Below are positions 4,590 to 22,430 of a stretch of DNA of 64,000 bases, in pieces; position 1 is the stretch's first letter, and every line of letters begins with the position of its first letter. Made by a program: the position numbers and the translations under genes. The notes beneath the pieces were generated by a model, which was not told the DNA's origin, searched no databases, and saw only the letters and a program-made list of their open reading frames with translations. The DNA comes from Octopus vulgaris. Taxonomy: Eukaryota. The DNA is taken from NCBI GenBank assembly GCA_951406725.2, contig OX597818.1:59272001-59336000 (forward strand), written 5' to 3'.

Positions 4590-4925
4590 TATATAATATT
4601 ATTAGAGACAAAACCACTATTTTGCAAAACAAACAAGGAAAGACTTAATCAATACATAAAATTTTAATAAAAAGTCATAATTTGAAACTGACTTATTGGA
4701 AGTCCACCTGAAGATTGTCGATCAAGACAAGAAACAATTGTAGTGGCGGTTTTTTTGACTTTTTATTAAAAGTTTATGTATTGATTAAGTCTTTCCTTGT
4801 TTGTTTTGCAAAATAGTGGTTTTGTCTCTAATAATATTATATAATATTTTACTATAAAATTGGATTTAATCCTAAATCTGATTTTTTCCCTGTAAATTTT
4901 GGATTTATTCCCTAATATTTATTAT
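4590..4925 (+). mobile_element. PLE terminal remnant, family A: inverted repeat, hammerhead in loop, tail
   Basis: Arms 4590-4677 / 4756-4843 near-perfectly inverted; tail 4844-4925 homologous to the 3' end of the GIY-YIG element at 22140-22222. Confidence 0.85.
4704..4746 (+). ncRNA. Minimal type I hammerhead ribozyme
   Basis: CCAC-CTGAAGA-TTGTC(gatcaa)GACAA-GAAA-CAATTG-TA-GTGG: intact core, stems I and II pair, palindromic stem III, GUA cleavage triplet. Confidence 0.85.
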
Positions 4926-6873
4926 ATATATTTATATATATATATGTGTGTGTGTGTGTGTGTTTGTGTTTGTCCCCCTAGCATTGCTTGACAACCGATG
5001 CTGGTGTGTTTACGTCCCCGTCACTTAGCTGTTCGGCAAAAGAGACCGATAGAATAAGTACTGGGCTTACAAAGAATAAGTCCCGGGGTCGATTTGCTCG
5101 ACTAAAAAGGCGTTGCTCCAGCAATGCCGCAGTCAAATGACTGAAACAAGTCAAAGAGTAAAGAGAGAGTATATATATATATATATATATATATATATAT
5201 ATATATATATATATATATATATATATTACTCATACGAGAATGCATAGAGCTACACAGAGGCAAGTCCTTGCTGACACACCTGCAAACTTATATTAACTCG
5301 CTGCCACAGAAGTACCCGTAGACAGCACTCAAAAACACACATTTACGCACACACAAACGTATATGTGTCTTTGATTGTCTTGCTGTGCCTGTCATCACAG
5401 ATGTGTTTCAGGATGAATGCATATCTTGTTGTGAAGTGTTAATGCTACAATCTTCACTCCTCCAAACACTCCAAAATTTTCCCCCTCAAAAACTTTTTTC
5501 TCTAGAGATTAGGTGTACCTGAATAGGATTGAGACAAAGACGTCGGAGATCGAAATGAAATTCGGAACCACTTGCCATGCCTTCATATAAAATATATTAA
5601 TATGTTTGTTTTAATGTTTTGTTTTTACTTACACTCTATTCTTTGTTTGTTTGGTTTGTTTTGTATTTTTTGCTAGGCACAACATATATATTCAATTACC
5701 CTTCATGCCTAAAATTTTAAGCACTAACCCCTCACCTCATAAGTATTACAAAGTTGAGTAAACATTATTCAAATTAGTCTGCCATATGTTACATAAAAAA
5801 AGCCTCACCTTAGATGACCTTTTATGTTTAACTACGTCTATACAAACAACTTTGATTTTTCAAAACACTTTTAGCTCTCAGTACAAAAATTTATACTTTT
5901 TCTCGTTTTTTTTTATTTCTAATGCAGTGCAGAATATATTTTAATGCACACCATCTATAAACATATTCTCTTGGCAGCTGTCCAAATTTTCTTCAGAATG
6001 TAAACGCAGTTACATAATATTCAATCAATGAAACAGTGCCTGATAATGTACGGTTAAGTTATTCCTAGCCTACGTATAAGTTCTCTCTAGAGGACGTGTA
6101 AAATGTCGATGATATTGCGGATACTTGTTCCCCGTGATTTATATAAACTTATCGAAGGAATATCTTAAATTTATACCGTTATACAATAAACAGCATGTTT
6201 CGAAATGAAGACAAATTATTCTCAATGGAACCATTATGAACGGGGTATATTTTATGTATCCATGAAAGAATGTGCACGTATAGATGTCTCTACGTTGAAC
6301 TGAAGGAGCAATAATATACAAAGCTGAAACAAACTACGCTGACACAATAAATTTTACAAGAGAACAGAAATTTTGATAGTAACAAAAACAACATAAAAAC
6401 AGTTGCAAAACGTACTAAAGACAGAGTGCAGAGATAAAAAGTCTTCCTCGTTGAAAAACCCACGATGTTAGGAAGAGAATTTCAGCCAGTGTAAAAACTG
6501 AGATTGAATCGAAAGTTCCGTACTAAAAGCCGTAAACGAAAGATGGATTCTCGCTGTTGAACATCAATGTTCAATCACAAATAATTATAATCTTTTCTAA
6601 TCAAGTCACAAGGCCCAAAATTGTAGGGGGGGGGAGGACAGTCGATTAGATCCACCCCAGTACACAACTGGTATTTAATTTATCGACTTTGATAGGACAA
6701 AAACGAAGTGTATTCTCAATGTTGATTATGCAAATCATAAGTGGAAAGAGTTACTCATGTAGTAACTGAATGGAGCATGCAGGCACAGAAAGAATACTAG
6801 AAAAGACATGGAAATCAAGGGAGAGCACACAAACATAAAATTTATTTGATGAATATACGCATAAGTATTTAAG

Positions 6874-6975
6874 CACACACACACACACACACACACACAC
6901 ACACACACACACACACACACACACACACACACACACACACACACACACACACACACACACACACACACACACACA
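6874..6975. repeat. (CA)n microsatellite
   Basis: Direct observation. Confidence 0.98.
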
Positions 6976-6989
6976 TATATATATATATA

Positions 6990-18772: not shown

Positions 18773-21430
18773 ATAATTAATAGCCCCCTATTAAAGGTTA
18801 CTTTAGGTTAATTTGTTTTTAGTTTAGAGTACCATATATATATTTTTTTAGTTATATAGTTTAGGCTTTAATTATAGTTAGTATTTAATTGGTATTGTTT
18901 TGTTTTGTATTTACTTAATATTTTATTGAGTGTGGGAATGAATATTAGTGTATATATCGAGTTTGTACGTATGTATATGTATGTGTGAGTGTGTATATGG
19001 TTATGTTTGTGGGTGTGTGTATATATGTGTGTGTATTTGTGTGTATTGTGTATAAAGGGGTTTTATCTTTATCTTTATATTTGTATGTATGGACTTCATT
19101 ATCATGATTAGTTTAATAAGAATGTTGTATGTAGGTATGGGTGTGTATGTAGGTGTGAGTGTGTACAAGTGTAAGTATAGATGCGGTAGTGTATGAGTGC
19201 TATGTAATTGAGTGTGATTATTTATGCACTTGTATACATGCAAGTTTTGAATGTCTGTGTGATTGCACCCGTCTGCGTGTACACACTCATTTTTATATAT
19301 ATATTAATAACTATATGAATTTTCGTTTTTTAGTTTCTCTTTTGTATGTTTATGTATGTGTGAATGTGTGTGCGTGTGCGTATTTGCTTGTATCCAGTTT
19401 TGTACGTATGTATTTGTATGTGTGAGTGTGTATATGGTTATGTTTGTGGGTGTGTGTATATATGTGTGTGTATTTGTGTGTATTGTGTAAGGGGTTGTAT
19501 CTTTATATTTATACATGTATGTATGGATTTTATTTATCATGATTATTTTAATAAGAATTTTTGTATGTAGGTATGGGTGTGTATGTATGTCTGAGTGTGT
19601 ATAAGTGTAAGTGTAGATGTGGGAGTGTATGAGTGCTATGTAATTGGGTGTGATTATTTATGCACTTGTATACATGTAAGTTTTGAATGTGCGTGTGATT
19701 GCACCCGTCTGAGTGTACACACTCTTTTATATATATATTAATATATATATATGAGTTTTCGTTTATCATGGTCGTTTTATTAAAGTTTGTTTGTATTGAG
19801 ATTTGTACGTATGTATATGTATGTGTGAGTGTGTATATGGTTATGTTTGTGGGTGTGTGTATATATGTGTGTGTATGTGTGTGTATTGTGTTAGGGGTTG
19901 TATAGTTATATTTATACTTGTATGTATGGATTTCATTTCCATTCATAAACGATAAATAAATAAATTAATAAAATAATAAAATTAATAGCCCCCTATTAAA
20001 GGTTACTTTAGGTTAATTTGTTTTTAGTTTAGAGTACCATATATATTTTTAGTTATATAGTTTAGGCTTTAATTATAGTTGGTATTTAATTGGTATTTCT
20101 TTGTTTTGTATTTACTTAATATTTTATTGAGTGTGGGAATGAATATTAGTGTATATATCGAGTTTGTACGTATGTATATGTATGTGTGAGTGTGTATATG
20201 GTTATGTTTGTGGGTGTGTGTATATATGTGTGTGTATTTGTGTGTATTGTGTATGAAAGGGGTTTATCTTTATCTTTATATTTGTATGTATGGACTTCAT
20301 TATCATGATTAGTTTAATAAGTATTTTGTATGTAGGTATGGATGTGAATGTATGTATGCGTGTGTACAAGTGTAAGTATAGATGCGGTAGTGTATGAGTG
20401 CTATGTAATTGAGTGTGATTAATTATGCACTTGTATACATGCAAGTTTTGAATGTCTGTGTGATTGCACCCGTCTGCGTGTACACACTCATTTTTTTATA
20501 TATATATTAATATCTATATGAGTTTTCGTTTTTTATGGTTTTTTTAAAGAATTTGTAGATAGTTTTGTATATTCCATTCATAATTTTAATGACGCTGTTT
20601 TACGTAGCGCAAATTATTTTTATATGTTCGGTTCCATGGTAACGTAATTTTTGTTTATTGTAATAACGGATAGTGTTAAAATTCACTTCAAAATTTGATA
20701 CTGATTAGAAGGTATGTCTATTTTTCTCCTTTTGTTAATCTTGTTACTTATGATAATCTGATTACTTATGGAGTATTTTATATATCGTATTATGTGTAGA
20801 AATGTTGTTTTTCTTTTGTATGTTTATGTATGTGTGAATGTGTATGTGTGTGTGCGTATTTGCTTGTATCGAGTTTTGTACGTATGTATTTGTATGTGTG
20901 AGTGTGTATATGGTTATGTTTGTGGGTGTGTGTATATATGTGTGTGTATTTGTGTGTATTGTGTAAGGGGTTGTATCTTTATATTTATACTTGTATGTAT
21001 GTATGGATTTTATTTATCATGATTATTTTAATAAGAATTTTTGTATGTAGGTATGCGTGTGTATGTATGTGTGCGAGTGTACAAGTGTAAGTGTAGATGA
21101 TTTGGAAGTGTATGAGTGCTATGTAATTGGGTGTGATTATTTATGCACTTGTATACATGTAAGTTTTGAATGTGCGTGTGATTGCACCCGTCTGCGTGTA
21201 CACACTATTTTATATATATATTAATATATATATGAGTTTTTGTTTATCATGGTCGTTTTATTAAAGTTTGTTTCTATCGAGATTTGTACGTATGTATATG
21301 TATGTGTGAGTGTGTATATTGTTATGTTTGTGGGTGTGTGTATATATGTGTGTGTATTTGTGTGTATTGTGTTAGGGGTTGTATAGTTATATTTATACTT
21401 GTATGTATGGATTTCATTTCCATTCATAAT
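18766..21430. repeat. Complex GT/AT-rich tandem repeat: six ~400-bp subunits within a ~1.2-kb higher-order duplication
   Basis: TTTGTACGTATGTAT..GTGTGAGTGTGTATAT motif at ~18960, 19398, 19800, 20162, 20873, 21281; AATAGCCCCCTATTAAAGGTTAC at 18779 and 19984. Confidence 0.85.
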
Positions 21431-22004
21431 TTTTTAAAAACGTTTGATATCCACGTGCAAAGAATTGTTCGGTTTTCTTTTGAGTGTTTATGTATGTGTG
21501 AATATGTGTGTGTGTGTGTGATTATTTGCGTAATTTATTTATCTGTATGGGTGTGGGTGTTTATATATTGGTATATATCGTGTTCTGTATGTATGTGTAT
21601 GTATATGTATGTGTGAGCGGGTATATGTATATTGTTTATGAATGAGTGTTGTATGTGTGTGTGGGGAAGTATGAATAAGTAATGTGTTGAGTGTATGAGC
21701 ATGTGTGTGTATATATAGTTTATTTTTTGTTTTTTGTTTTTTGTTTTTTGGTTTTTGTTTTTTGCTTGTTGTTTTTTGGTTTTTGTACATTTTGAAATAT
21801 GAGAACTTTTATAATAGGTTTTTATATTCAATTGTTTATAGGGTTTATTTTAGATTATTTTAGATTATATATTGATTATATATAGATTATATATAGATTA
21901 TATATAGATTATATATTTTTATTTTCATTGATAATTTTATTATTTTATTATTTTAAATTATATTAAATTATATTTTAAAATATTGATATTTTTAGATCAA
22001 AAAT

Positions 22005-22048
22005 CCACCTGAAGATTGTCGGTAGCAGACATGAAACTATTGTTGTGG
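22005..22048 (+). ncRNA. Minimal type I hammerhead ribozyme
   Basis: CCAC-CTGAAGA-tTGTC(ggtagca)GACAt-GAAA-CTATTG-TT-GTGG; homologous to 4704-4746. Confidence 0.75.
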
Positions 22049-22430
22049 CGGTTTATTTAATTTATATTAAAATTTTATGTATTGATTAAGTCTTTTCTTG
22101 TTTGGTTTTAAAATAGTTTTTTTGTCTCGAATTATATTATATAATATTTTACTATAAAATTGGATTTAACCCTAAATCTGATTTTTCCCTGTAATTTTGG
22201 ATTCATTCCCTAATATTTATTATATATATATATATATATAGTGAGAGAGAGACAGAGAGAGACAGACAGACAGATAGATAGATAGATAGATTGATAGATA
22301 GATAGATAGATAGATAGATAGATAGATAGATAGATAGATAGATAAAAGCACTTATTTTGCTCTGCTGGCTACAGCGTGAAAAACCAATTGGCACTAGCAG
22401 TTTTGGGGGGCTACATGGAGCTGTGCCGAT

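Follow-up and report, generated by a model that had tools for sequence, protein, structure and literature searches.

A 64,000-nucleotide (nt) stretch of the Octopus vulgaris genome (contig OX597818.1, positions 59,272,001 to 59,336,000; the whole stretch is called the window below) is AT-rich animal DNA, rich in (TA)n microsatellites, and contains hairpin-plus-tail repeats that are non-autonomous derivatives of Hydra-clade Penelope-like retroelements (PLEs). Family A is represented by four copies, each embedded in a (TA)n run, and 4/4 have the same shape, namely an inverted arm, a spacer of 0-4452 nt, a direct arm and an unpaired 3′ tail. The inverted arm lacks the tail and ends in TATTATATA (TATGATATA in subfamily A2), 79-81 nt before the 3′ terminus ...CCCTAATATTTATTA. 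The spacers of copies 1 to 4 measure 72, 0, 1 and 4452 nt, and copy 4 is a long copy of 4.6 kb (17577-22222).

An earlier note, made from the letters of the window, had described for family A a common TA-rich motif about 80 nt from the 3′ terminus, at which the arms end while the enclosed length runs from about 0 to 4.4 kb; all of this holds in 4/4 window copies, and the shorter tail of the copy at 17201 reflects a 17-nt deletion in copy 3. Its further statement that other families also fold back at internal words agrees with family B (boundary ...AAATTGTTATAT|, tail 96 nt), family C (boundary ...ACTATTA|ATATCC, one copy) and the element at 58360. In this last element the word CTGTTATA is internal, the sequence is continuous in 40/40 scored genome copies, and a tail would measure about 279 nt.

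Fixed outer boundary and single tail of inverted pairs

We searched the genome (2.8 Gb, 227 contigs) for family A with two queries. The first, of 183 nt and including the tail, yielded 39 best loci with an intact 3′ end, and the second, a 93-nt query without the tail, yielded 32 genome loci (19 new and 13 common to the first sample). Each genome sample represents the best 40 of 700-1,400 first-look candidates, and is therefore made up of the youngest copies and not a random draw. All family A loci were mapped onto two natural references, one spliced and one unspliced, and BLAST matches with an outer end over 90 nt away from the terminus were removed before arms were paired. The removed matches were 70-93% matches to TG-rich internal repeats, a 3′-cut fragment in L011 and an upstream piece of L003, which is a copy with an internal deletion. 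The 44 resulting arm pairs comprise 42 genome loci and 2 window copies.

The fixed boundary of the fold-back was confirmed in these samples. The arms were arranged head-to-head with their 3′ ends facing outward in 44/44 pairs, and in 43/44 one arm reached the terminus while the other stopped 75-82 nt short of it, at exactly 79 nt in 35/43. At base level, 30/45 tail-less ends read TATTATATA followed by (TA)n, and all 45 lay within 13 nt of one another instead of being scattered randomly along the terminus. The inner ends and spacers were far more diverse, with 34 distinct structures among the 44 pairs, and even the 'perfect' hairpins differed by a few bases at the centre. Given this number of inner-junction structures, the boundary was not merely inherited from one master copy, and the claim of a fixed outer boundary with a variable inner breakpoint is borne out. 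Flanks of at least 80% alternating TA on both sides were found in 32/44 pairs, the remainder having shorter TA runs; Hydra-type autonomous copies of the genome (described below) are likewise inserted in (TA)n.

The tail was almost always present on one arm of a pair. In the tail-blind sample of family A, 24/24 pairs combined exactly one tailed with one tail-less arm (L054, counted among them, has a tailed arm of only 15 nt), as did 22/22 pairs without two near-duplicate loci, a result that independent site choice at each end would give with a probability of at most 0.5^22. The same 32 loci included 8 solo copies, 6 tailed and 2 tail-less. Tail-blind samples of other families gave the same picture: all six family B pairs with both outer ends visible were mixed, with one tail each, and so were 4/5 pairs of the autonomous Hydra-type family; for three loci of the latter the unseen ends were predicted in advance, and 2/3 matched, the third, L043 with L084, being tail-less on both sides. 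Solo copies of family B ended at the internal site in 7/7 cases. The tails measure 79 nt in family A, 96 nt in family B and 73 nt in the autonomous family.

Several side observations concern these ends. Two sets of near-duplicate loci, L052/L063 and L060/L061, lie about 12 kb apart on the same contigs and share even their insertions; L052 and L063 differ at the tail-less junction, so the boundary can appear displaced when a microsatellite changes after a duplication. The number of TTA units at the terminal end varies, as ...TATTTA(TTA)0-3 before (TA)n (window 22208-22222 and 57 other tailed ends), and the internal end is much more uniform; the terminal variation could reflect slippage at initiation or later microsatellite change. 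Family B often forms head-to-tail arrays of a 474-nt unit, as well as head-to-head arrays (C2:202471000-202476300, L073; C8:9455500-9458400, L065). In a head-to-head array seven inverted units face three direct units, and the array is bounded by the internal site on one side and by the terminus on the opposite side.

The coordinates of the window elements are collected in Table 1. A repeat resembling a tRNA-derived short interspersed element (window 4420-4575) abuts the left (TA)n of copy 1, and similar sequence stands beside L037 and L054. The 3′ region of the long copy (window 18775-21430) contains a TG-rich duplication of about 1.2 kb that is built of smaller repeats, and the exon-1-like segment and the intron donor of this copy sit in an insertion within the second TG-rich unit.

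Table 1 Hairpin-plus-tail elements of the window and their parts
Feature	Position	Strand	Remarks
Copy 1, inverted tail-less arm, 5′-truncated	4589..4680	-	outer end adjoins (TA)n
Copy 1, direct arm	4703..4924	+	hammerhead-like core 4704-4746; part paired with inverted arm 4753-4844; internal start word TATTATATA 4835-4843; tail 4844-4924 (81 nt)
Copy 2 (subfamily A2), inverted tail-less arm	6987..7067	-	
Copy 2, direct arm	7068..7234	+	paired part 7068-7148; internal word TATGATATA 7146-7154; tail 7155-7234 (80 nt)
Family B, inverted tail-less arm	8273..8443	-	
Family B, direct arm	8446..8647	+	internal site ends 8551; 96-nt tail 8552-8647
Copy 3 (A2), tailed arm	17200..17379	-	tail 17200-17261 with 17-nt deletion; paired part 17262-17379
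Copy 3, tail-less arm	17381..17498	+	ends ...TAATATGATATA|(TA)n
Copy 4, inverted tail-less arm, 64 nt	17577..17640	-	pairs with 22093-22156
Copy 4, open frame P0001, 391 codons	17597..18772	+	N-rich N-terminus; Hydra-type linker and predicted GIY-YIG C-terminus; no RT catalytic domain
Copy 4, long direct copy	17641..22222	+	RT-less PLE derivative with predicted endonuclease
Copy 4, exon-1-like segment	20686..20711	+	equals 5′ end of short spliced copies
Copy 4, intron	20712..21995	+	AAG|GTATGT ... TTTTTAG|A; retained here, absent in 23/39 sampled genome copies
Copy 4, hammerhead-like core, by eye	22005..22048	+	CCAC-CUGAAGA-stem-GAAAC-loop-GUU-GUGG; no Rfam support
Copy 4, internal start word TATTATATA	22135..22143	+	end point of tail-less arms
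Copy 4, tail, 79 nt	22144..22222	+	ends ...CCCTAATATTTATTA|(TA)n
Family C, hairpin-plus-tail copy	49962..50196	+	arms 49962-50011/50086-50135; tail 50136-50196
Family D	58081..58745	.	minus part 58081-58485 crosses internal word; plus arm 58620-58745 ends CTGTTATA|(TA)n

Hydra-type relatives and the spliced RNA template

The long copy 4 contains one long open frame, P0001, whose N-terminus is asparagine-rich and of low complexity, with long (AAT)n runs where the reverse transcriptase (RT) would be expected; asparagine-rich inserts are also described for rotifer Penelope open reading frames (ORFs) (PMC3846280). The C-terminal 242 residues of P0001 match a 672-aa database protein (E 4e-23) and a 708-aa ORF of the same genome (E 7e-23), the alignment covering only the region that follows the RT. 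The motifs RWK, DKT, CxCx5C and CxxC..E..N..CxH are present in proteins P0002 and P0003, and among 33 relatives the cysteines, the catalytic residues and most other motif positions are kept in 31-33, the K of RWK being kept in 27/33. The FD and Y(R/K)DD motifs of the RT are invariant in 33/33. On the endonuclease side, the Y of GIY, the Y.G, the R and the H are kept in 33/33 and the E and N in 32/33, all of them C-terminal, by which motifs a GIY-YIG endonuclease is predicted at the C-terminus of the Hydra-type proteins. The published description of the Hydra clade gives RWK, DKT instead of DKG, CxCx5C and CxxC/CxH, an ORF of about 700 aa, a unit of less than 3 kb and insertion into (TA)n (PMC8557442). 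In P0001 the linker reads CxRx5C, the second Cys being lost, and CxxC, E, N and CxH are intact.

An AlphaFold model of the 708-aa protein (predicted local distance difference test score 87) was compared with known folds by Foldseek, and the best matches were telomerase RTs (6zdq_A, E 5e-9; 3du5_A, E 2e-8), followed by other RTs. Judged from this model, the RT of the autonomous copies appears related to telomerase RT, a closeness expected for a PLE. A genome search for Hydra-type ORFs gave 35,375 first-look candidates, of which 66 were scored, and the majority of these are intact, at 717 or 727 aa. Intact elements of this type, with RT and endonuclease, likewise end at either of two alternative 3′ sites and likewise have inverted partners, and in the autonomous copies L042 and L045 a repeat flanks the ORF on both sides, as in the pseudo-long terminal repeats (pseudo-LTRs) of PLEs. 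The long copy is, from its open frame, a derivative that keeps only the predicted endonuclease and has no RT of its own, and not an autonomous member; the 'family GIY-YIG' of the earlier note is a predicted PLE-type endonuclease in a copy that lost its RT.

Two further observations touch these relatives. Some Hydra-type ORFs stand in tandem with a spacing of about 2.59 kb (for example C21:8155215-8162399; loci L040-L045). The RT-less, endonuclease-keeping layout recurs in at least 40 scored genome copies (635 first-look candidates, 85-96% identical).

Other searches weigh against the assignment. A Pfam search with P0001, P0002 and P0003 returned no RT or GIY-YIG match, PDB sequence searches with P0003 and with a profile returned no match, and tblastn searches of the 39 family A loci with the three proteins found no RT with a family A 3′ end; the RT fragments near L028 and L032 are unrelated and not those of family A. 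The assignment to the family rests on the motifs, one fold search and the description in the literature. A precomputed label, PF26215, was not reproduced by our Pfam search.

Other PLE hallmarks were looked for. No Rfam match to a hammerhead or another relevant family was obtained at the gathering score in the whole window, nor at E values up to 10 in two short stretches, and a hammerhead-like core CUGAAGA...GAAAC that can be picked out by eye at 22005-22048 and 4704-4746 has a helix III of 2 bp and an AAUU loop, and is without the usual G10.1-C11.1 pair. The intron acceptor of the window copy lies 9 nt upstream of the hammerhead-like helix I (window 21996-22048); for comparison, the intron of Drosophila virilis Penelope has its end at the 5′ boundary of helix I (PMC4209133). 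No pseudo-LTRs or partial tandems of family A were seen in the sample.

The short family A copies provided direct evidence of an RNA intermediate. On the sense strand of the element, the long copy has a donor ...GATTAGAAG|GTATGT at 20703-20717 and an acceptor ...TTTTTAG|ATC at 21986-21998. The short copies, which start at CTTCAAAATTTG, 253 nt from the terminus, read GATTAGAAG|ATCGAAAATCCACC at the exon junction. The exact spliced junction was found in 23/39 family A loci and the unspliced acceptor in 11/39, and in L005 donor and acceptor are both present about 1.3 kb apart. Because the short copies lack a canonical GT-AG intron that the long copies keep, the template was RNA, and these short copies are retrocopies made from the long element's 3′ portion after splicing. 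The two arms of a pair agreed in splice status in 12/12 informative structures (10 spliced and 2 unspliced), which is modest evidence that both arms derive from one RNA or one RNA source.

Origin of the tail and competing explanations

The family A insertions are best explained as double insertions of Hydra-clade PLE derivatives, arranged head-to-head within (TA)n. One copy of each runs to the 3′ terminus and its partner stops at a fixed TA-rich word 79 nt upstream, probably because each cut strand primed at its own start site. The insertion architecture, the fixed boundary, the near-constant single tail, the (TA)n flanks and the RNA origin can be read directly from the copies. By analogy with the in vitro result for another PLE, both DNA strands would be nicked and extended, with one of the cut strands priming reverse transcription at the terminal start site of the RNA and its counterpart at the internal one. 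The RT would be supplied in trans, the UAUAUA-like run at the internal site may help the (TA)n primer by pairing with it, and the two nascent cDNAs would join at their 5′-truncated ends, often via a short palindrome. As for the different sites at the two ends, we favour, as a guess, the view that each site is available only once on a given RNA molecule. Two different fixed start sites on the element RNA are the likely source of the tail. The wider proposal, that one terminal plus one internal start is the footprint of a coordinated two-ended integration in which a single sense RNA (spliced or unspliced) is copied from both cut ends and each site is used once, is put forward tentatively, as an idea that falls a little short of an even chance.

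The lengths of the arms argue for two primings. In 12 distinct family A pairs the tail-less arm exceeds the tailed one in length; the tailed arm of 5 of these pairs measures just 15-80 nt and has no overlap with the partner arm. A single folded-back cDNA cannot yield a longer, non-overlapping tail-less arm, so the RNA must have been primed twice. Among the three routes named in the earlier note (annealing, second-strand priming and re-cleavage), second-strand priming is the model that fits best. Very short tailed arms (≤80 nt), considered as a sign of collision on the RNA, made up 5/16, about the expectation for uniform truncation, and are evidence neither way. Arms of the same pair differed by a mean of 0.6 and arms of different loci by 1.3 differences per ~92 nt, in a family too young for this to be a strong test.

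Some results pull in the other direction. One family A pair, L019, bears the full tail on both arms and is the sole exception among the 44 pairs, and in the autonomous family the pair of L043 with L084 has a tail on neither arm, an exception to the one-tail rule. Nine pairs share the identical structure 251|251 with an 11-nt overlap and may be copies of one another, hence non-independent, and the samples lean toward young copies, as stated above. In the in vitro work on PAc, a PLE of the anole, strands did not differ in start site and starts were not homologous to the target, so a strand-specific choice here is without the backing of that study. For the window elements the proposed mechanism is read from genome copies.

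What defines the internal site is a separate question, on which a reading as pure annealing and a reading as protein signal stand at roughly equal odds. The earlier note had proposed an internal mimic of the (TA)n target that is used for annealing, which is plausible but unproven. In its favour, families A and B have their longest alternating-TA run at the internal site, and the tail-less junctions are ambiguous with the flanking (TA)n over 6-9 nt. In the alternative, which differs only in what defines the site and which we consider a serious contender at somewhat less than even probability, a retroelement protein reads an RNA signal there, as in the anole PLE, so that the TA-richness is incidental or mildly helpful and primer annealing is not decisive. 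A 27-nt T/A-only word lies 144-171 nt from the family A end and is used by 0/43 tail-less arms; simple annealing to any TA-rich word fails on specificity because this longer word is left unused. In family B each of the two start sites follows an identical 9-nt word, CCTAAATTG, at a distance of exactly 6 nt (L065 unit; window 8530-8551 and 8626-8647), and this repeat suggests a duplicated start signal beyond mere target mimicry. The sites of the autonomous family (...ATTGTA|, ...TAGATA| and ...ATCAATA|) are not alternating-TA runs, and the starts of the anole PLE are not homologous to its target (PMC11167929). The longest-run position and the ambiguous junctions count against a protein signal, as do the few shifted junctions (3, 8, 10 and 13 nt), which keep the TA register, though L052 and L063 differ there, and the RNA fold of the last 227 nt, which shows no significant structure (z -0.10). 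No common hairpin was seen just beyond the stop sites of families A, B and the autonomous family, as judged by eye.

The tails of family A carry CCCTAAAT and CCCTAATAT, and in families A and B alike words of the CCCTAA type stand close to the ends. CCCTAA is the complement of the telomere unit TTAGGG, and words of this type are curious next to a telomerase-related RT.

Re-cleavage, or endonuclease-mediated resolution, supposes that both arms were first tailed and that the endonuclease or repair then cut one of them at the internal word and rejoined it to the microsatellite. Endonuclease-mediated resolution has been suggested as the origin of the tail (PMC8557442), the internal word resembles the target, and L019 could be an unresolved two-tailed product. 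Nothing in such a process would require exactly one cut arm in 42/43 family A genome pairs, solo copies exist both tailed and tail-less, and the tail ends were mapped to RT start sites and not to cuts (Frangieh et al., PMC11167929); we regard this explanation as unlikely.

Slightly less likely still is the self-priming model of rotifer Penelope, in which a single target-primed cDNA folds back on itself and is copied to give the inverted arm, and which is favoured in the Discussion of PMC3846280. Several features would suit it: the nine pairs mentioned above share 11 nt around an AAATTT centre, many further pairs overlap by 1-6 nt, the arms agree in splice status in all 12 informative structures, and arms are identical over ~92 nt in 17/25 pairs, as against 33% for arms of different loci. 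The 12 distinct pairs with a longer tail-less arm, 5 of them without any overlap, already contradict it as a general explanation, given that a cDNA begun at the internal site lacks the tail and so cannot pass it on, and one begun at the terminus cannot give a longer partner. The spliced sense RNA that served as template also does not fit the antisense-template version of the model.

A fold-back or miniature inverted-repeat transposable element (MITE)-like DNA transposon, with the fixed left end as its terminus and the short copies as internal deletions, would account for the inverted repeats, the TA-rich target, the high copy number and the many long copies whose start points nearly coincide after the left arm, and is nevertheless scarcely credible, being contradicted by the precise loss of a canonical GT-AG intron in 23/39 copies, by a tailed end that has no inverted partner and so leaves no true terminal inverted repeats, by arm lengths that vary independently on both sides, by a coding capacity limited to a PLE-type endonuclease, and by the same architecture around intact elements with RT and endonuclease.

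Significance and comparison with known systems

How the inverted and tandem insertions of PLEs and their tails are built up is still open, and the single biochemical study used one vertebrate element. The octopus genome holds very young (TA)n-targeting families with hundreds to thousands of copies, whose ends and inner junctions can be read to the base. The copies constrain models for specialists: start sites are combined in pairs, the template is a spliced sense RNA, and many pairs are not a single folded cDNA. The quantitative one-tail rule and the constraints on twin priming are useful to specialists and bring no surprise of principle. If coordinated two-ended integration is true, thousands of young insertions would form a natural record of the PLE integration mechanism, and they would speak against the antisense-template self-priming model. 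For annotation, hairpin-plus-tail repeats of this kind should be labelled non-autonomous PLE derivatives, not MITEs or a new class of element.

The phenomenon itself is already known, a one-sided PLE tail in a structure of known kind and in a known clade. The fold-back with a tail is therefore not a new device: insertions of endonuclease-containing PLEs often consist of a copy with an inverted 5′-truncated partner and a tail at one end (PMC8557442, PMC3846280). The complex insertions described by Craig et al. 2021 and Arkhipova et al. 2013 resemble ours in the head-to-head 5′-truncated copy, the one-ended extension, the palindromes or overlaps at the inverted junction, the microsatellite target, the intron retention and the N-rich ORF inserts. 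They differ in the tails, which measure 73-96 nt here and are published as 30-40 bp (PMC8557442); in our families, moreover, the short copies are non-coding spliced 3′ ends and the long copy has only the endonuclease. The RT-less, endonuclease-keeping copy and the spliced non-coding 3′-end retrocopies are new members of the Hydra-type PLE derivatives. What is added here is the near-obligate single tail per pair, the internal site as the best (TA)n-like run in two families and the spliced sense RNA template; the one-tail rule and the internal site as best TA run are not stated in the accessible parts of the text of PMC8557442 and PMC3846280.

The closest biochemical parallel is PAc, for which two RT start sites are spaced by the length of the genomic tail and both strands are cleaved and extended (PMC11167929). 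The AT-rich target is a further likeness. The PAc starts lie at an AC-rich stem-loop, are not homologous to the target and show no strand preference in vitro (PMC11167929), whereas in our families both ends abut target-like T/A words and pairs almost always combine both kinds of start. The Hydra clade as described in PMC8557442 shares the motifs, the single ORF of about 700 aa, the unit of less than 3 kb and the (TA)n insertion. That description gives a small number of families in Mollusca and reports canonical hammerheads (PMC8557442), in contrast to tens of thousands of first-look candidates in one genome and no Rfam hammerhead in the window. Non-long terminal repeat (non-LTR) retrozymes and other non-autonomous PLEs (bioRxiv 10.64898/2026.07.22.740005; Chlamys MRC1, PMC8557442), so far as these sources describe them, are likewise non-coding units related to PLE ends and presumably mobilised in trans, and the head-to-tail arrays of the 474-nt unit in family B are like theirs. 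Family A differs from them in occurring as dispersed singles or inverted pairs, with no arrays and no confirmed hammerhead.

An inverted 5′ segment is also a mark of L1. In the twin priming of L1, which Ostertag and Kazazian are said to have put forward in 2001, the second strand reportedly primes internally on the RNA and so yields such a segment, the internal site varying and the two segments reportedly coming from non-overlapping parts of one RNA. The octopus elements differ in their fixed internal site and in arms that mostly overlap each other.

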